Sequence record: OQ411014.1
Source of the DNA: Escherichia phage EJP2
DNA: 64,000 nucleotides
Strand: one strand, 5' to 3'
Shown: positions 5,669 to 37,800 of the stretch, in pieces
How the letters are laid out: each line of letters opens with the position of its first letter
Numbering within the stretch: the first letter of the stretch is position 1
Program-made: the position numbers and the translations under genes
Notes under the pieces: model-generated
What the model was told of the DNA's origin: nothing
The model's database searches: none
The model's input: only the letters and a program-made list of their open reading frames with translations

Positions 5669-6532
5669 ATGATAAACACTAAGCCGAAGCGTAAGAAGTA
5701 TTTGAATAACGCTGACTTACTAAGAGAGATACACATAAGTAAAATGTCGTATTGCTATCTGCTAGATCGTGCTTATAGTATGTATGACTACATAGTTTTT
5801 GATGAATCCGAAATCACTGAAGAAATCTTAGAAAAGGCTTCAGCGGCTCGAATCAAACGACTAAACAATGAAGCGATTGACAAGATTCGCGTAAAAGATG
5901 GACTATCAGCTAAGAAAGCGAAAGAACAAGCTGAAAGTTTAGGTGTAGTATTGAGTACTGTACCACAAGATGAAGTAGTGATTCGTGTAATCACCGATGA
6001 ACATATCCCTTTCGATGCTTCCAACAAGAAAGGTGAGAAGTTCCGAGTAAACTTTGAACCATTCAAACACTACATCGTTGATGATTGTGGAGAGATAGTT
6101 GAAGTTGGTCGGTCACATTGGCGTGGTGATTTAGAAAACGGTGAGTTCTCAATGGACCACGGTCGAATTACAAATGAACTCGGTAAAATGTTTATCAAAC
6201 TTGCTGAACAGATTTCACACAAGACTAACTATAGACGTTATACGTACTTGGATGAAATGATGGGCGATGCTCGTGTTCAACTAGTCAAGAATGCTCTTCT
6301 CTTCAAAGAAAGTATTCTGTACAAAAAAGTGAAACCTGCTGTGCAGTTGAATCCCTTTTCATATTATACATCGTTTGTTAACAACGCGTTTCGTTCAGTA
6401 CTGAATGCTGAAAAGAATGTACGTAACATCCGTGATGATTTGTTGGAATTGAATGGCTTTAACCCAAGTCATACTCGTCAACTAGAAATCGAAATTCAAA
6501 TGCAAGAAAGGAAAAACAATGGCACTATTTGA
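5669..6532 (+). CDS. Putative late-transcription sigma factor (gp55-like), extended form
   Basis: N-terminus KPKRKKYLNNADLLREI resembles the T4 gp55 N-terminus as recalled; sits directly upstream of the gp47/gp46-like pair as in T4; 287 aa is longer than T4 gp55. Confidence 0.4.
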   Translation: MINTKPKRKKYLNNADLLREIHISKMSYCYLLDRAYSMYDYIVFDESEITEEILEKASAARIKRLNNEAIDKIRVKDGLSAKKAKEQAESLGVVLSTVPQDEVVIRVITDEHIPFDASNKKGEKFRVNFEPFKHYIVDDCGEIVEVGRSHWRGDLENGEFSMDHGRITNELGKMFIKLAEQISHKTNYRRYTYLDEMMGDARVQLVKNALLFKESILYKKVKPAVQLNPFSYYTSFVNNAFRSVLNAEKNVRNIRDDLLELNGFNPSHTRQLEIEIQMQERKNNGTI

Positions 6533-16623: not shown

Positions 16624-16655
16624 ATATAAAATTTTGTATATCTTTGGAGGATATC

Positions 16656-17525
16656 ATGGCAAACAAAAAATTACTACAAGAAGCTATTCAGGCTTTTGCA
16701 AATGGTGAACACGCTGTTGCTGATAAAAAACTACGTAAATATTTTATCGAAACCGCTCAAGAAATTAACAAGAAACTAGAAGAAGAAATGGAAGCGGAAG
16801 AGTGTGAAGAAATCTCTGAAGCGGAAGAAGTAGAAGACTGTGAAGAAGTCGTTGCTGAAGACATTCATTCTGGTCAATCAGAAGATCTAACTGGTGAAAT
16901 TCAATATGCACTAGGTGAAGCTGAAGACGAAGAAGTTGAAGCTGGCGAAGAAGAAATTGGTATCGACGGTGACGAAGAAGTTGCTGGCGAAGAAGAAGTT
17001 GAAGTTGAGTCTGGTGACCTACCAACTCAAGACCAATGGGCTTCCATTAAAGATGCAATTGATTCTCTAAGCAAGCGTTTCGATGAAATCGAAGGCGAAG
17101 GCGACATTGACCTAGATGTTGAAGGTGATGATGTTGGTGATGAAGAAGAAATTTCCGATTTCGAAATTGACGATGCAGGTGAAGAAGAATTTGGTGATGT
17201 ACAGTTCGGTGATGAGAAATTTGGCGAATCTTACAAAATGAAACCAGTTTCTAAACCAGGTAACGATGCAGCTAAATCTAAATCTCCAGTTGCACCAAAC
17301 GCTAAATCTCCAGTAGACGGCGTTGACCCAGTTAAGATCAAAGATGGTAACGTTGTTACTAACGATGGCGAACTTCTAAAAAATAAAGATGCTGACACTG
17401 CTAAAGTGGAAGACATGAACAACGTTATGGATAATGCTAAAGGTCTAATGAAAGACGTTAAGAAACCAGCTAATAAAGCTGACAAATCTAAGTCTGTAGT
17501 TCCATCAAAAGCACCAAAGTTCTAA
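16656..17525 (+). CDS. Highly acidic prohead core / scaffold-like protein
   Basis: D/E-rich with strong GGAGG site before ATG 16656 (track start 16644 is TTG); position between portal and protease matches the T4 gp67/gp68 region. Confidence 0.5.
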   Translation: MANKKLLQEAIQAFANGEHAVADKKLRKYFIETAQEINKKLEEEMEAEECEEISEAEEVEDCEEVVAEDIHSGQSEDLTGEIQYALGEAEDEEVEAGEEEIGIDGDEEVAGEEEVEVESGDLPTQDQWASIKDAIDSLSKRFDEIEGEGDIDLDVEGDDVGDEEEISDFEIDDAGEEEFGDVQFGDEKFGESYKMKPVSKPGNDAAKSKSPVAPNAKSPVDGVDPVKIKDGNVVTNDGELLKNKDADTAKVEDMNNVMDNAKGLMKDVKKPANKADKSKSVVPSKAPKF

Positions 17526-19371: not shown

Positions 19372-19399
19372 TTATTTTATAAAGCTAATCTTTTTCAGT

Positions 19400-19420
19400 G
19401 ATAAATAATAACATACTGAA
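19400..19420 (+). promoter_or_regulatory. Late-type promoter box GATAAATAAT with ACATACTGAAA element
   Basis: GATAAATAATAACATACTGAAAAG about 35 nt upstream of the capsid gene start. Confidence 0.5.
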
Positions 19421-19454
19421 AAGCGAAATAAACCATCTTTTAAGGAGATATAAA

Positions 19455-20630
19455 ATGTCACAACTATTAACTGAATCTAAATGGGCACAAGTTAAGAGCA
19501 AACTAACCGAAGGTCTAAAAGACAACCGTAAACTAGTAATGGAATCTGTTCTAGAAAACCATCGTAAAGTAATGCTAAACGAAAACGCTTCTGGCGGTGC
19601 AACTTCTGCTGGTAACATTGCTACCCTAAACAAAGTAATTCTACCAATCATGCGTCGTGTAATGCCAACCGTTATCGCTAACGAAATCATCGGTGTTCAA
19701 CCAATGTCTGGCCCAGTTGGTCAAATCCATACCCTACGTGTTCAATATGCTGATAACGCACCAGGCGTTGTAGCTGGTGAAGAAATGCTATCCCCATACA
19801 AAATCGCTAAGTCCTATACTGGTGATGTGAATGGCGATAACGAAAATCCACGTGCTGCTCCTACTAGTCAACTAGAAGGTACTATGGGTCGTCGCGTTAA
19901 CATCCGTATCCTACGTGAAACCGTTGAAGCGAAATCTCGTCGTCTATCCGCTCGTTGGACTGTTGAATCTGCACAAGATGCACAATCTCAACACGGTATC
20001 GATATCGAAGCTGAACTAATGGCTGCTATCGCTCAAGAAGTTACTACTGAAATCGACCAAGAGCTACTACACAAACTACGTGCTCTACCTGGTGCTGCTG
20101 CTGTAACTTATGACCAATCCAAAGTTACTGGTGTTGCTACTTTCGTTGGTGATGAACATGCTGCTCTAGCTACTCTAATCAACCGTCAAGCGAACGAAGT
20201 TGCTCGTCGTACCAAACGTGGTGCTGCAAACTGGGCTGTTGTTTCCCCAACCGCACTAACCATTCTACAGTCTGCAACTACTTCTAGCTTTGCTCGTACC
20301 ACCGAAGGTACTTTCGAAGCACCAACTAACGTTAAGTTTGTTGGCGTACTAAACAGTACTATGCGTATCTATGTTGATACCTATGCAGATGACAGTACTG
20401 ATGTACTAATCGGTTACAAAGGTAATGCTGAAACTGATGCTGGCGTGTTCTACTGCCCGTACATCCCACTAATGGCTTCCGGTACTGTAATGGACCCTAA
20501 CACTGGGGAACTCGTAACAACATTCTTAACCAGATATGGCTACGTACAGTTGACCGACAGTACCAGTTCTCTTGGTAACGCGGCTGACTACTACAGCAAA
20601 ATTGCTATCCGCAACGTAACCTTCATGTAA
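19455..20630 (+). CDS. Major capsid protein, T4 gp23/gp24 family
   Basis: IANEIIGVQPMSGPVGQ and ETDAGVFYCPYIPL match recalled gp23 blocks (IAFDICGVQPMNSPTGQ; EMDAGIYYAPYVAL); strongly biased codon usage; TAAGGAGA RBS. Confidence 0.9.
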   Translation: MSQLLTESKWAQVKSKLTEGLKDNRKLVMESVLENHRKVMLNENASGGATSAGNIATLNKVILPIMRRVMPTVIANEIIGVQPMSGPVGQIHTLRVQYADNAPGVVAGEEMLSPYKIAKSYTGDVNGDNENPRAAPTSQLEGTMGRRVNIRILRETVEAKSRRLSARWTVESAQDAQSQHGIDIEAELMAAIAQEVTTEIDQELLHKLRALPGAAAVTYDQSKVTGVATFVGDEHAALATLINRQANEVARRTKRGAANWAVVSPTALTILQSATTSSFARTTEGTFEAPTNVKFVGVLNSTMRIYVDTYADDSTDVLIGYKGNAETDAGVFYCPYIPLMASGTVMDPNTGELVTTFLTRYGYVQLTDSTSSLGNAADYYSKIAIRNVTFM

Positions 20631-20728: not shown

Positions 20729-21823
20729 ATGCCTAAATCATCAATGACTCAACAAGAATTCGAAACTAAAATGACCGAGAAGTATGGTAAAGTAGATTTC
20801 AGTACTATGACGTTTAAGTTGAGTAAAACTACAATCAATTGTCCTAAGTGTGGAAACGCAAATACCAAATCTGCAATCCGACACATTGAATGTACTTGTG
20901 CAAACTGTTTTTCCAATATGTCACAACGTTCTAGTAATGAAATTTTCATCGAAAAAGTAGAAAACAAATTCGGAGCAGGTAAGTTCAAATTCGACAAACT
21001 AAATTATCATAACGCCAAAACTCCGGTTGAATTGTTCTGCACTGAACATAATGCATATTTCACCATTGTCCCAAATAAAATGCTCACTGGACATGGTTGT
21101 AATGTATGTAATAAAAATGAAGCACATACTACTGAAAGTTTCATTACAATTGCGAAAAAGAATTATGGCACTACCACGTTTGACTTCACTAATACAGTGT
21201 ATGTTAACCGCCAAACTAAAGTATCAATCCATTGTAACGAAGGTAATCACGAATGGTTAGTTAACCCAGCAACTATAATCGCCGGAATAAACCAATGTGG
21301 TGTCTGTAAACGCAAATCTGGTATGACAACGGAACGTTTTATTAGTGATGCAAACTCTGTACATGATAATGCATACACATATGAGAACACTGTTTATAAA
21401 AGAAGTGAATGTGTCGTAGATATCACATGTCCAAAGCATGGAAACTTTACACAATCACCAAAGTCACACCTTCGTGGTCGTGGATGTCCAAAGTGTGGTA
21501 AGTATGGTTATCAACAAACACAGCCAGGTTACTTCTATATTCAGAAGTTGACGAATGAGAACAAAACTGTGTATAAGTACGGAATCACTGGTGACATGAA
21601 ACGTCGCGTCCAAGAACAATCCCGTGATTCTGTATTTGAACACGAAGTGCTTGTTGAAATGTACTTTGAAGACGGAAAGAAACCAATGGCATTAGAATCA
21701 CTGTTGAAGAACTATATTGAGAGTGGAGTCACCAGTACTGAAGAATTGCCATCAGGATTTTCGGAAACCTTTGATGAGAAGTACTTAGATGAAGTACTAT
21801 CCATAGTAAATAACTTTAGGTAA
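20729..21823 (+). CDS. Zinc-ribbon-repeat protein with C-terminal GIY-YIG-like (T5orf172-type) domain; candidate homing/mobile nuclease
   Basis: Four repeats of a C..HG.F...P...G.GC..C unit (e.g. CPKHGNFTQSPKSHLRGRGCPKCG); C-terminus GYFYIQKL...YKYGITGDMKRRVQEQ. Confidence 0.5.
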   Translation: MPKSSMTQQEFETKMTEKYGKVDFSTMTFKLSKTTINCPKCGNANTKSAIRHIECTCANCFSNMSQRSSNEIFIEKVENKFGAGKFKFDKLNYHNAKTPVELFCTEHNAYFTIVPNKMLTGHGCNVCNKNEAHTTESFITIAKKNYGTTTFDFTNTVYVNRQTKVSIHCNEGNHEWLVNPATIIAGINQCGVCKRKSGMTTERFISDANSVHDNAYTYENTVYKRSECVVDITCPKHGNFTQSPKSHLRGRGCPKCGKYGYQQTQPGYFYIQKLTNENKTVYKYGITGDMKRRVQEQSRDSVFEHEVLVEMYFEDGKKPMALESLLKNYIESGVTSTEELPSGFSETFDEKYLDEVLSIVNNFR

Positions 21824-28906: not shown

Positions 28907-29638
28907 ATGGATCTACGCAATGTACTACGTGACCTAGTAAACACCACTTCCGGTATCGATTTCACCTGTATCGCAGTTTCTAATGAAGACCGTGGTGAAG
29001 GTCAACGTGTGTATATGGAATCTTATACAGAAGACAAAACCCTAGTAATGCGTGCTTTCACTAAAGAGAACGTACCAGACTTCGAAGGTCGTTTTGGTCT
29101 AACCAACCTCGGAACTCTTCAAGGTCTAATGAACCTCAAAACCTTCAGTACTGAAGGAACTACTATCACAGTAAACCAGAAAGCTGGTAAGGTTCAAAGT
29201 CTAGGTTTTGCTTCTGAAGATGCAAGTACTGTATTCGTTGTACAGTCCGAGAAATTCATTCCAGCACAACCACGCTTCACTGAGAAAGATTATGCAGTAA
29301 CAGTTGTCCCAACTGCTGCTAAAGTTCAAGAACTAAAGAGCTTCTCTGGTGTGTTCAAGGCAATCAGTGCACTAGCTACTCCATACACTGAAGACGGCAA
29401 TATGTTCTTCCACGTTGGTGAAAAGAACAAGAATAACCACACTGGTGCGATTCAGTTCTCTAAAGCTGAAGGTGATTTGAAACTACAATACGGTTATGCA
29501 ATTGACCGCATTCTTCAAACCCTAGGTCGTGTATCCAATGCAGAATCTGCTTCACTGTCTGTAAGTGCAACTGGTATTCTGAAAGTTACAATTGATACTG
29601 GTCTTGTTGTTTATCAGTTCTTTGTACACGGTTGCTAA
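28907..29638 (+). CDS. Hypothetical protein (243 aa); possibly a sliding-clamp-like replication factor
   Basis: Size and position after the polymerase resemble T4 gp45 (228 aa); no motif confirmed. The ORF is secure, the function is not. Confidence 0.4.
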   Translation: MDLRNVLRDLVNTTSGIDFTCIAVSNEDRGEGQRVYMESYTEDKTLVMRAFTKENVPDFEGRFGLTNLGTLQGLMNLKTFSTEGTTITVNQKAGKVQSLGFASEDASTVFVVQSEKFIPAQPRFTEKDYAVTVVPTAAKVQELKSFSGVFKAISALATPYTEDGNMFFHVGEKNKNNHTGAIQFSKAEGDLKLQYGYAIDRILQTLGRVSNAESASLSVSATGILKVTIDTGLVVYQFFVHGC

Positions 29639-30521: not shown

Positions 30522-30818
30522 ATGACTAAACTACGAGCAAACACGGATTACGTTATCGTTGAACTAGTAGGTACTAAGAGCAACGTTACCGAAGCAGGTA
30601 TTATCATGTCCAACGTTGAACAACCAACTCTAGGTCGAGTCATCAGTGTTGGAGCAGGTAAATACTTACCTAATGGTGAACGTCAAGAACATAACATCAT
30701 CGATGGTGATATTGTTATTTTCGGTAAGTCATCACTCAACCAACCAATCCAGATTGATGAAGATAATGTATACTACGTCATGAAGGTTGATGAAGTATTT
30801 GGAACCTATAATGTCTAA
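30522..30818 (+). CDS. GroES-like co-chaperonin (T4 gp31 analogue)
   Basis: DYVIVELVGTKSNVTEAGIIM...GRVISVGAG...GDIVIFGK matches the Hsp10 pattern; ATG 30522 with GGGAGA RBS. The track ORF 30387 is an artefactual N-terminal extension. Confidence 0.6.
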   Translation: MTKLRANTDYVIVELVGTKSNVTEAGIIMSNVEQPTLGRVISVGAGKYLPNGERQEHNIIDGDIVIFGKSSLNQPIQIDEDNVYYVMKVDEVFGTYNV

Positions 30819-31530
30819 AAAACTACCATTTTGGATAATCCCCGCTCACTGGGGGTTGTCCGGTAAAGCAAAGAAAATTGCTCAAATCAACTATTACAGT
30901 ACTGATCAGTACCAAGCAGATTATGAATGTGCAGAACATATCTATTTGACTGAATATGAAATTGATTCAGCACGTAATGATATTGCGTTGCGTCATAGTA
31001 AGATTCAGAATCTGGAATACAGACTAAACAAACTATCCATTGATGAAAAGCACGGTCGAATCACTGAAAACGAACAAAAGAACAAAGCACTTGACATTCG
31101 TTTGGAAGAGAAAGATATTAGTGAAAAGGATTATGACCGTGAAAAACTTGAACTCCTTCCTGATGGTGAAGAGAAGAGTATTGGAACTATTGAGTACTTG
31201 TTCAAGTACCATGAAATTACTGAACGTGAATATAGCAAAGAACTATATACGTTGCGTAAAGAGCCGTGGATGGATTTCGATTTAGAATTGAATCAAGAAA
31301 CGAATGAGATTGAGTTATCATTTGACTATAATGAATTCTTCTGGAAGAAGTTGAAACATGATGGTCATCCAGGTAATGATGAATATGAAATCATCGAAAA
31401 CTTCATTCGTGATTGGGGACGTAAGATGGCATCAGATGAATACGTAGATGATTACGATTCTAAACTGATGAATGAGAATACTGAACCAGATCTTACTGGA
31501 CTACCGGAAGGTTATCGAGTTTATAAATGA
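30811..31530 (+). CDS. Hypothetical protein (about 239 aa)
   Basis: ATG overlaps the GroES-like stop (translational coupling); helical and charged. Confidence 0.5.
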   Translation: MSKKLPFWIIPAHWGLSGKAKKIAQINYYSTDQYQADYECAEHIYLTEYEIDSARNDIALRHSKIQNLEYRLNKLSIDEKHGRITENEQKNKALDIRLEEKDISEKDYDREKLELLPDGEEKSIGTIEYLFKYHEITEREYSKELYTLRKEPWMDFDLELNQETNEIELSFDYNEFFWKKLKHDGHPGNDEYEIIENFIRDWGRKMASDEYVDDYDSKLMNENTEPDLTGLPEGYRVYK

Positions 31531-31542
31531 CAAGAAAAAAGG

Positions 31543-31571
31543 AGAACATTGCGTTCTCCTTTTTTTTATAC
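31543..31571. terminator. Bidirectional terminator between convergent genes
   Basis: AGGAGAAC ATTGC GTTCTCCT hairpin with A-run upstream and T8 downstream. Confidence 0.65.
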
Positions 31572-31583
31572 TATACTGAAAAA

Positions 31584-32240
31584 TTAATCAAGAATAGCAG
31601 GAATCTGCTTGTGAATCTTGATTGCGAAGTTACCTGCTTGAGCAGGAGTCGCAGATGATTCCAATTTAACTTCACCACCAGTACTGGTCATGAATGGAAC
31701 ACCTGTTAGGTCATCAATTAGTAGACGGCCTTGGTCGATTGCAGTAGTTGGTACGCCTTGGAAAGTAGTAGCGTCACGGTCAAATACGTCAGCACGTTCG
31801 ATTAGGAAAGTGAGAGCACTTGCACCAGTAACGGAAGCAGCACCAGAGATACCATTTGGAGCGTTTTTCCAACCAACAACATCAGCAGCTTGTGCAATGA
31901 GGGAGGTGGATAGAATTACCGCACGTTGTTGAACAACGTCGATAACACGCTTCATATTTGTTTGAGCAGCGAAAGCAGCAGTGTAGTCAACTTCTACGGT
32001 AGCTTCTACGAAAGGAGTGCCGTCAACACGAACTACACCTTTATCGTTTAGGAAAGCAGTGATTTCATCACGCTCAACTGTGTTTAGAAAATGTTGAACA
32101 CCCGCATATGAACATGGAGCACCAGTCACAGCGATAACAACATCACCAGCATTTGCAACAGCGATGGAAACTAGGGCGTTTTTACCATAGAAATAACCAA
32201 GAACGCCACTCTCGGAGAAACCATTAATACGTTCTAACAT
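31584..32240 (-). CDS. Abundant virion-type protein, paralogue A (function unassigned)
   Basis: 218 aa, Ala/Val/Thr-rich; capsid-like codon bias; AAAGGAGA RBS; shares blocks with its neighbour (QQRAVILSTSLIAQAADV; LTFLIERADVFDRDATTFQG). Confidence 0.55.
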   Translation of the reverse strand: MLERINGFSESGVLGYFYGKNALVSIAVANAGDVVIAVTGAPCSYAGVQHFLNTVERDEITAFLNDKGVVRVDGTPFVEATVEVDYTAAFAAQTNMKRVIDVVQQRAVILSTSLIAQAADVVGWKNAPNGISGAASVTGASALTFLIERADVFDRDATTFQGVPTTAIDQGRLLIDDLTGVPFMTSTGGEVKLESSATPAQAGNFAIKIHKQIPAILD

Positions 32241-32257
32241 GTTAATTCTCCTTTAAA

Positions 32258-32821
32258 TTATTTAAGTACAGGTAGTGCAGCAAACACTTTAATAGCAACT
32301 GGAACAGCGTCAGCAGCAGAACCGTCTTGTTTGCGGAATACACCAGCTTGACCTAGGTCAGCAACGAATTCAGCACATGGATCAACTGGAACTGGGTATG
32401 CAGCACCTGGACGAACAGCTTGTGCGTTAAACACATCTTGACGTTCGATGATGTAAGTGATACCGAAAGAAGTAGCAGTTAGAACGCCAGTAGAACCGTA
32501 AGCGATTACGTTACCGTCAACTTTACCGAAATCAGCAACAGTTGCATCTACTTCGCCTTTAGCTAGTAGAGAGGTAGTAACTAGTACTGCACGTTGGGAA
32601 AGTAGTTGTGCAACCATAAATTGGTTGTAGTTTGCAGCAGATAGAGCGGTCTGAGCAGCGTTATCGCCAATTTCAGTACCGTCAGGTTGAATAGCGGTTT
32701 CGCCAATTTCAACGTCAGCAGGTAGAGATAGAACTACAGTTACAAAACCGTTATCACCACCCCAGAATTCACGACCATGTGCACTCATGCCATAGTTACG
32801 ATCAAAAGTATTAAGACTCAT
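32258..32821 (-). CDS. Abundant virion-type protein, paralogue B (function unassigned)
   Basis: 187 aa; SQRAVLVTTSLLAKGEVD and ITYIIERQDVFNAQAVRPG align with paralogue A; same codon bias. Confidence 0.55.
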   Translation of the reverse strand: MSLNTFDRNYGMSAHGREFWGGDNGFVTVVLSLPADVEIGETAIQPDGTEIGDNAAQTALSAANYNQFMVAQLLSQRAVLVTTSLLAKGEVDATVADFGKVDGNVIAYGSTGVLTATSFGITYIIERQDVFNAQAVRPGAAYPVPVDPCAEFVADLGQAGVFRKQDGSAADAVPVAIKVFAALPVLK

Positions 32822-32865
32822 AAAAATCTCCTTGTCTAATTTGTTGCAGATTAATCCTGCTTAAA

Positions 32866-32877
32866 GTTATTTATCAA
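32866..32877 (-). promoter_or_regulatory. Late-type promoter box (GATAAATAAC on minus strand) for the paralogue pair
   Basis: Reverse complement of TTATTTATCA about 45 nt upstream of the 32821 start. Confidence 0.4.
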
Positions 32878-32963
32878 TTGTGTATTTGCATAACACGGAA
32901 AAGGATGAAATAACATCGTTTTATATGAATTTATTTATCAAATTTTGAGACACACAGATTTTA

Positions 32964-32974
32964 TGTGCTATAAT
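32964..32974 (+). promoter_or_regulatory. Early-type promoter variant TGTGCTATAAT
   Basis: One mismatch from the consensus; about 30 nt before the 33007 start. Confidence 0.5.

Positions 32975-34496: not shown

Positions 34497-37800
<3,304 letters not shown>

Follow-up and report, generated by a model that had tools for sequence, protein, structure and literature searches.

Two paralogous, probable virion proteins encoded by an inverted, putatively late operon of Escherichia phage EJP2, and their possible place on the capsid surface of Rak2-like phages

What are the products of two genes that run against the direction of all their neighbours in a phage genome, and where in the particle might they sit? 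The question is raised by a locus of Escherichia phage EJP2 (record OQ411014.1), of which we analysed one stretch of 64,000 nucleotides, hereafter the window. A preliminary description, made from the letters of this DNA, had reported two adjacent minus-strand genes of 218 and 187 amino acids (aa) within a plus-strand block. Both open reading frames (ORFs) are present exactly so and are separated by a spacer of 17 nt:

32258..32821, minus strand: promoter-proximal gene, 187 aa, acidic protein of 19.5 kDa, isoelectric point (pI) 4.4
31584..32240, minus strand: second gene, 218 aa, acidic protein of 22.9 kDa, pI 4.7

The pair does form an inverted island, as its neighbours (the genes for DNA polymerase, a phosphoesterase, GroES, a FEN/RNaseH-type exonuclease, terminase, SSB and UvsX) all lie on the plus strand. 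The closest GenBank relative of the DNA around it is Erwinia phage Hallingskeid (~81% identity), followed by Salmonella phages 7t3, Munch and SE_PL (~75%), with weaker matches to CBB, GAP32, BF, the pEa_SNUABM phages and XbC2. By these matches the window belongs to a Rak2-like jumbo myophage, a group with genomes of ~350 kb, and its gene order agrees with that of Rak2-like phages.

The preliminary description found no family for the two proteins, a statement that no longer holds. Both match phrog_9326, annotated as 'virion structural protein' (E=4e-66 for the 218-aa and E=1e-70 for the 187-aa protein), and both cover the whole profile. Direct orthologues share 52-84% identity with the pair. 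They are RaK2 gp107w (ORF107w), CBB_271, GAP32 gp265, phAPEC6 gp210 and 121Q 618 for the 187-aa protein, and RaK2 gp106w (ORF106w), CBB_270, GAP32 gp264, phAPEC6 gp211 and 121Q 617 for the 218-aa protein. The two RaK2 proteins were identified as abundant virion proteins by sodium dodecyl sulfate-polyacrylamide gel electrophoresis and tandem mass spectrometry of CsCl-purified virions, in a paper that treats them alongside the capsid, the sheath and a fibre protein and calls them 'two distantly related proteins' (PMC3622015). Their bands ran at the predicted sizes (PMC3622015), so they are uncleaved. In CBB virions the peptide coverage of CBB_270 (91.3%) was the highest of 55 proteins, compared with 68% for the capsid protein, and that of CBB_271 was 56% (PMC5259590). 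In phAPEC6 the coverage of gp210 and gp211 was 69.8% and 69.9%, next to 74.9% for the capsid protein and 68.0% for the sheath (PMC7247149). We set aside the label 'hemagglutinin repeat-containing' carried by phAPEC6 gp211, for which Pfam gives no support.

The proposal that the pair encodes abundant virion components is thus borne out by mass spectrometry of orthologues in three genera (RaK2, CBB and phAPEC6). Absence from purified virions had been named as the observation that would speak against it, and the orthologues were found in purified particles of all three phages. By orthology, the pair very probably encodes abundant, late-expressed virion proteins, and both would enter the EJP2 particle in many copies and without being cleaved. 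Published work on orthologues is the basis for all three properties (virion presence, abundance, absence of cleavage); the pair adds new orthologues to a known, experimentally detected virion protein family whose abundance in relatives is already on record.

The sequence blocks said to be shared by the two proteins proved to be part of a longer relationship. BLASTP aligned the 187-aa with the 218-aa protein at 35% identity over 78 aa (E=1e-6) through the blocks QQRAVILSTSLIA/SQRAVLVTTSLLA and LTFLIERADVFD/ITYIIERQDVFN, and a profile-profile comparison with hhalign (44 and 47 orthologues) gave 99.1% probability and E=9e-19 over 177 columns. At the level of these alignments the paralogy runs full length, the 218-aa protein having an insertion of ~29 residues after the first strand relative to its paralog. 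Codon usage also places the pair beside the capsid gene, as had been noted. In a principal-component analysis of relative synonymous codon usage in 60 ORFs of the window, in which the first axis takes 28% of the variance, the pair ranks 2nd and 4th of 60 on that axis, and the major capsid gene, SSB, UvsX and a 293-aa head protein rank beside it. The effective number of codons (ENC) is 31.5 for the 187-aa gene and 35.7 for the 218-aa gene, against 34.6 for the major capsid gene and a median of ~42. The GC content of the two genes is 44.5% versus ~38% for the window, and both proteins are rich in Ala, Val and Gly.

Are the two genes equipped for late expression? The following signals were found around them, together with a candidate regulator elsewhere in the window:

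32932..32938, minus strand: distal late box, ATAAATA, 111 nt upstream of the ATG
32868..32874, minus strand: proximal T4-type late box, ATAAATA within TTGATAAATAAC, 47 nt upstream of the ATG
32846..32860, minus strand: hairpin in the 5'-untranslated region, GCAGG-loop-UCUGC, predicted by RNAfold, directly after the proximal box
32827..32833, minus strand: Shine-Dalgarno sequence AAGGAGA of the 187-aa gene, invariant in relatives
32247..32253, minus strand: Shine-Dalgarno sequence AAGGAGA of the 218-aa gene, inside the 17-nt spacer
31535..31565, either strand: bidirectional intrinsic terminator, a 14-bp stem flanked by A and T runs
32945-32974, plus strand: near-consensus sigma-70 promoter, TTGAGA-18-TATAAT with an extended -10 TG, facing the FEN/RNaseH exonuclease gene
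5669-6532, plus strand: gene for a gp55-like late sigma factor (phrog_12791, E=6e-148)

The strong ribosome-binding sites and the late-type box of the preliminary description are both there. AAGGAGA stands 5-6 nt before the ATG of each gene, and the box occurs in two conserved copies of TTGATAAATAA (32867-32877 and 32931-32941), whose ATAAATA core is invariant in an intergenic alignment of six phages from four genera. The distal box keeps its relative position in Hallingskeid, Munch, CBB, RaK2 and phAPEC6. The proximal box is invariant in 20 of the 20 Rak2-like relatives inspected and is missing from one distant environmental locus. Within the window, 17 of 21 ATAAATA sites fall 7-55 nt upstream of gene starts, including those of the capsid, scaffold and protease genes, where a rough estimate of the chance expectation is below one; these sites provide a usable map of candidate late promoters. 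The window resembles the late units of T4, whose TATAAATA promoters are read by gp55, in having an ATAAATA core 15-55 nt upstream of structural genes and in encoding a gp55-like sigma factor, but its commonest box is GATAAATAA and not TATAAATA. The late-promoter consensus of CBB is the same as that found here; a gp55-like sigma factor was found in CBB as well, and no gp33 or gp45 homologues (PMC5259590). The pair therefore has the sequence features of a T4-type late transcription unit with predicted promoters. The two genes would form one late operon under two tandem ATAAATA promoters that are read by the gp55-like sigma factor.

The hairpin is supported by covariation. Across 13 distinct sequences, 65 of 65 pair cells are paired, with compensatory double changes at three of the five pairs (GUAAG/CUUAC in RaK2 and GCCAG/CUGGC in a Vibrio phage). 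This degree of pairing was reached by 0 of 500 shuffles, and sliding the partner strand by 1-3 columns left 25-40% paired. Late transcription in T4 starts ~6 nt after the box. If the same distance applies here, transcripts from the proximal box would start at ~32862 and the stem would begin at about +3, ~3 nt after the start. The operon mRNA would open with this conserved stem-loop, which is probably a 5'-terminal structure that protects the message from 5'-end-dependent decay. Given the consensus ribosome-binding sites and the codon adaptation, both proteins are expected late in infection in large and roughly equal amounts. The terminator closes both the operon and the convergent plus-strand gene at 30787-31530, and in Salmonella phage Munch a terminator is annotated at the corresponding place. 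On the upstream side, the sigma-70 promoter stands back-to-back with the late promoters of the pair, and relatives conserve its -10 region (ATTATAGCAC when read on the other strand). As this promoter faces the exonuclease gene, the intergenic region would constitute a divergent early/late promoter pair. With its two late promoters, the stem-loop at the 5' end, consensus ribosome-binding sites and a terminator for both directions, the locus is a compact high-expression late cassette that could help the engineering of Rak2-like phages.

How do the two proteins behave in evolution relative to the shell? The 187-aa protein is 82% identical to a Hallingskeid 'virion structural protein' and ~53% identical to its counterparts in Asteriusviruses such as 121Q, and the 218-aa protein is 84% identical to that of Hallingskeid and 52% to that of Asteriusvirus Sharanji. 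The capsid protein shows 96.9% identity to Hallingskeid and 91.0% to Sharanji. In the same phages, then, 91-97% identity of the capsid protein stands against 52-84% for the pair, which is how an accessory protein would behave. A capsid protein of at least 60% identity was present in 88 phage records, 73 of which carry the pair. Judged from these comparisons, the pair evolves far faster, and is more narrowly distributed, than the shell protein.

The position of the pair is also conserved: it runs against its neighbours, with the GroES/structural-protein genes on one side and the RNaseH/FEN exonuclease gene on the other, in Hallingskeid, phAPEC6, RaK2, CBB, Munch and Vibrio phage 2.275.O. Compared with the RaK2 gp106w/gp107w family (PHROG 9326), the EJP2 locus has the same gene order, inverted position, late boxes, 5' hairpin and ribosome-binding sites, and no substantive difference was seen other than that the phage is new. 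Outside the family, a profile of both paralogs searched against 5.8 billion proteins returned 136 clusters, all in the same two subfamilies. A HMMER search of 1.84 billion representatives (50% identity) returned 42 hits, nearly all of 138-300 aa, the exceptions being two marginal hits of 78 and 1054 aa. By these counts the family is a small one. Neither search linked the pair to any annotated family, and nothing significant was found for it in Pfam and NCBIfam, or in sequence and profile searches of the PDB.

In Vibrio phage 2.275.O, a distant marine relative, three genes (227, 184 and 234 aa) occupy the inverted island between the PIN/FEN gene and GroES (locus L007, 1135-3206). In BFVD there was a weak structural match (E=2e-3) to a 227-aa protein whose UniProt accession is a neighbouring one, so the extra gene of this phage may be a third paralog.

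We next consider the fold, which bears on the suggestion that the proteins are tube-like. AlphaFold2 models built with family alignments had a mean predicted local distance difference test score (pLDDT) of 86.9 and a predicted template modelling score (pTM) of 0.80 for the 187-aa protein, and 85.9 and 0.82 for the 218-aa protein. Both models start with a disordered arm of ~20 residues and comprise, besides it, a first strand, a helix of 26 residues and an antiparallel sheet accompanied by short helices, of which the 218-aa model has two more. For both proteins a compact ferredoxin-like alpha/beta sandwich is confidently predicted. Among the structural matches of the models there was no tail tube, sheath, HK97-fold or decoration protein, and Foldseek against BFVD returned only the pair's own family and uncharacterised proteins of other jumbo phages. 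The arm has pLDDT values below 50-56 in the two models, and yet it is the best conserved part of the proteins: in the orthologue alignments, nearly or fully invariant columns make up 61% and 46% of the first 28 positions and 28% and 26% of the rest. A conserved disordered arm of this kind suggests peptide docking on a conserved partner.

That one of the two is the tail tube protein was proposed in 2013 by the RaK2 authors, on the grounds of its size (~20-25 kDa), abundance and predicted beta-strand content, at a time when no tube gene was recognised in RaK2 (PMC3622015). Size and abundance do resemble those of tube proteins such as T4 gp19, with its Hcp-like fold. However, the pair has no sequence or fold similarity to them, its predicted fold is not tube-like and it matches no tube profile. 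Moreover, phAPEC6 gp275c, gp274c and gp273c, whose genes come shortly after the sheath gene gp277c, hit PHROG tail-tube families (phrog_4542 with E=5e-86 and 8e-80, and phrog_13438 with E=9e-227) and, weakly, the general tube family phrog_45. The genuine tube genes of phAPEC6 adjoin its sheath gene, ~80 kb from the pair, which makes a tube role unlikely here. On fold, profiles and gene location together we rejected this assignment as highly improbable. Of the three roles offered in the preliminary description (tube-like, decoration, fibre base), 'tube-like' is therefore the one now disfavoured.

If not in the tube, where would two such abundant proteins be found? Rak2-like phages (RaK2, 121Q, GAP32, CBB and phAPEC6) build T=28 capsids, and among tailed phages T=28 has been reported only for 121Q and phAPEC6. 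In the low-resolution cryo-electron microscopy maps of phAPEC6 (10 A) and 121Q, the capsid protein is overlaid by a hexagonal network, an elongated second layer bridging capsomers across local two-fold axes. They also show a dimer-shaped fibre anchor at the centre of each hexamer, and an inner body. No gene has been assigned to any of these densities. The most likely of the placements considered, though somewhat short of an even chance, is that the pair forms an accessory layer outside the T=28 capsid, either the second layer or the dimeric anchor at the hexamer centre; one of these densities in 121Q and phAPEC6 would then be built from the pair. Several observations favour the capsid surface over both the interior and the tail. 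The proteins are acidic, and their orthologues are uncleaved and among the most abundant virion proteins. The pair evolves faster than the shell and is absent from some phages with related capsids. Finally, it has a conserved unstructured arm, and its genes lie near the head module and the terminase gene. As the pair is among the most abundant unassigned virion components, placing it would fill a gap in the T=28 capsid maps.

Several points weigh against a capsid-surface location. It is deduced from the properties listed above, and coverage in mass spectrometry differs from copy number. The authors of the phAPEC6 map pointed out that the capsid protein could itself account for the second-layer density through an extra domain. 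Other small phAPEC6 virion proteins compete for the slot, among them gp347 and gp253 with 75% and 66% coverage (PMC7247149). In the literature after 2020 we found no high-resolution structure of a Rak2-like capsid and no reassignment of these proteins. The cryo-electron microscopy paper on phiKp24 was tried as a guide and set aside, as that capsid is made from a single large capsid protein and the PDB holds no homologue of the pair.

The head module of the window itself encodes a further structural protein. The 293-aa 'virion structural protein' (phrog_15696; 16644-17525, plus strand), whose gene lies between those for the portal and the prohead protease, shows the most biased codon usage of the window (ENC 31.1), and a perfect TATAAATA box precedes its gene by 34 nt. 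As an abundant head-module protein it could compete with the pair for the unassigned capsid densities.

The interior of the head offers another place for abundant small proteins. The inner body is seen as a rod of 91 x 18 nm in bubblegrams of 121Q and phAPEC6; its proteins have no gene assignment, and by our estimate it would need hundreds of copies of small proteins. The inner-body proteins of phiKZ form paralogous families, which the pair would parallel. Internal proteins of T4 and phiKZ typically undergo propeptide cleavage by the prohead protease, and the orthologues of the pair show no sign of this, given the full-size RaK2 bands and the 91% coverage of CBB_270. The proteins are also acidic (pI 4.4-4.7) and showed no DNA-binding signature in the family searches, and phAPEC6 has other candidates for the inner body in its RCC1-like 'DNA condensation' proteins and the Dps-like gp306c (66% coverage). 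We therefore regard an inner-body role as quite improbable. The last of these phAPEC6 proteins merits mention in its own right: gp306c (locus L006, 43541-43981), a small virion protein detected by mass spectrometry, matches the Dps-like starvation-inducible DNA-binding family phrog_858 (E=2e-35) and is a candidate DNA-associated internal head protein of this phage group.

A non-tube accessory role in the tail, for example as ring-like decorations of the collar and distal tail or as anchors of the 'hairy' whiskers on the sheath, was weighed as well. In the tail map of phAPEC6, decoration proteins without an assigned gene occur at two levels, and the bases of fibres at three annular positions. 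Whiskers run along the sheath in CBB, 121Q and phAPEC6, and those of CBB have no gene product assigned to them (PMC5259590). An abundant pair without an assigned place would fit such a slot. However, tens of copies are enough for tail rings, which agrees poorly with prominent gel bands and with the highest mass-spectrometry coverage in the particle, and the genes of the pair are far from the tail module. The pair is moreover kept in every member of the group, although the CBB authors were not certain that GAP32 has any whiskers (PMC5259590). A tail-accessory role thus seems unlikely.

Returning to the capsid surface, how might two paralogs be arranged there? Two co-transcribed paralogs might naturally sit across a local two-fold axis as a pseudo-symmetric heterodimer, and the N-terminal arms of the pair may dock on the capsid protein. 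In its most specific form, a pseudo-two-fold heterodimer with a fold new to capsid accessory proteins, present in ~800-1700 copies of each protein, would build a hexagonal cement network that keeps the T=28 capsid of Rak2-like phages together and is identical to the second layer; taken as a whole, we think this rather doubtful. Like the known cement and decoration proteins (lambda gpD, T4 Soc, epsilon15 gp10 and the minor capsid proteins of phiKZ), the pair is small, abundant, uncleaved, late-expressed and lineage-specific, evolves faster than the shell, and has a conserved flexible arm able to dock on it. It differs from them in that its ferredoxin-like alpha/beta sandwich with a long helix matches no solved example, whether beta-tulip, Ig-like, OB, jellyroll or Soc-like, in that it consists of two paralogs and not of one protein, and in that we infer its capsid location. 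Should the surface location prove true, a new fold could join the catalogue of capsid-stabilising proteins.

What this analysis adds to the published detection of the family is the full-length paralogy, a predicted fold that rules out the tube and has no match among known decoration proteins, the location of the real tube genes elsewhere, the contrast in evolutionary rate with the capsid protein, and the conserved late-expression cassette with its covarying 5' hairpin. The tail-tube guess is thereby corrected; in its published form it still shapes the reading of these genes. General biology is left unchanged by these results, which give specialists a well-posed question.

From left to right, the named genes of the window follow the order below, and the pair lies 11-17 kb from the portal-protease-scaffold-capsid module, with the terminase gene near:

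first part: late sigma factor, portal, prohead protease, scaffold, major capsid protein (19398..20630, phrog_138, with the ENC given above), DNA polymerase, phosphoesterase
second part: GroES, structural protein, the two-gene island, FEN/RNaseH-type exonuclease, terminase, SSB, UvsX

One of these genes contains an insertion, and another probably has one beside it. The terminase large subunit (35164-37800, plus strand) has 878 aa versus 547 aa in Hallingskeid. The difference is an insertion of 331 residues (about residues 91-421, ~nt 35434-36426) that interrupts the Walker A motif (GK|T). It carries a LAGLIDADG homing-endonuclease domain, and its last residues, ...THN, precede a T; the extein flanks are 72-90% identical. 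These features identify it as an intein, missing from the closest relative Hallingskeid. Directly after the major capsid gene, a 364-aa ORF (20729-21823, plus strand) matches PHROG endonuclease and HNH-endonuclease families, and no gene of its size is annotated at the corresponding place in Hallingskeid. This ORF is probably a free-standing homing endonuclease inserted beside the capsid gene.

Lastly, a strongly codon-biased gene for a 243-aa protein (28907-29638, plus strand; phrog_12062, no Pfam hit) comes shortly after the DNA polymerase gene, from which one small ORF separates it. A sliding clamp might be expected at this position, and the protein might be a divergent clamp. In phAPEC6 the product of the gene at the corresponding position, gp215c, has been detected in virions.

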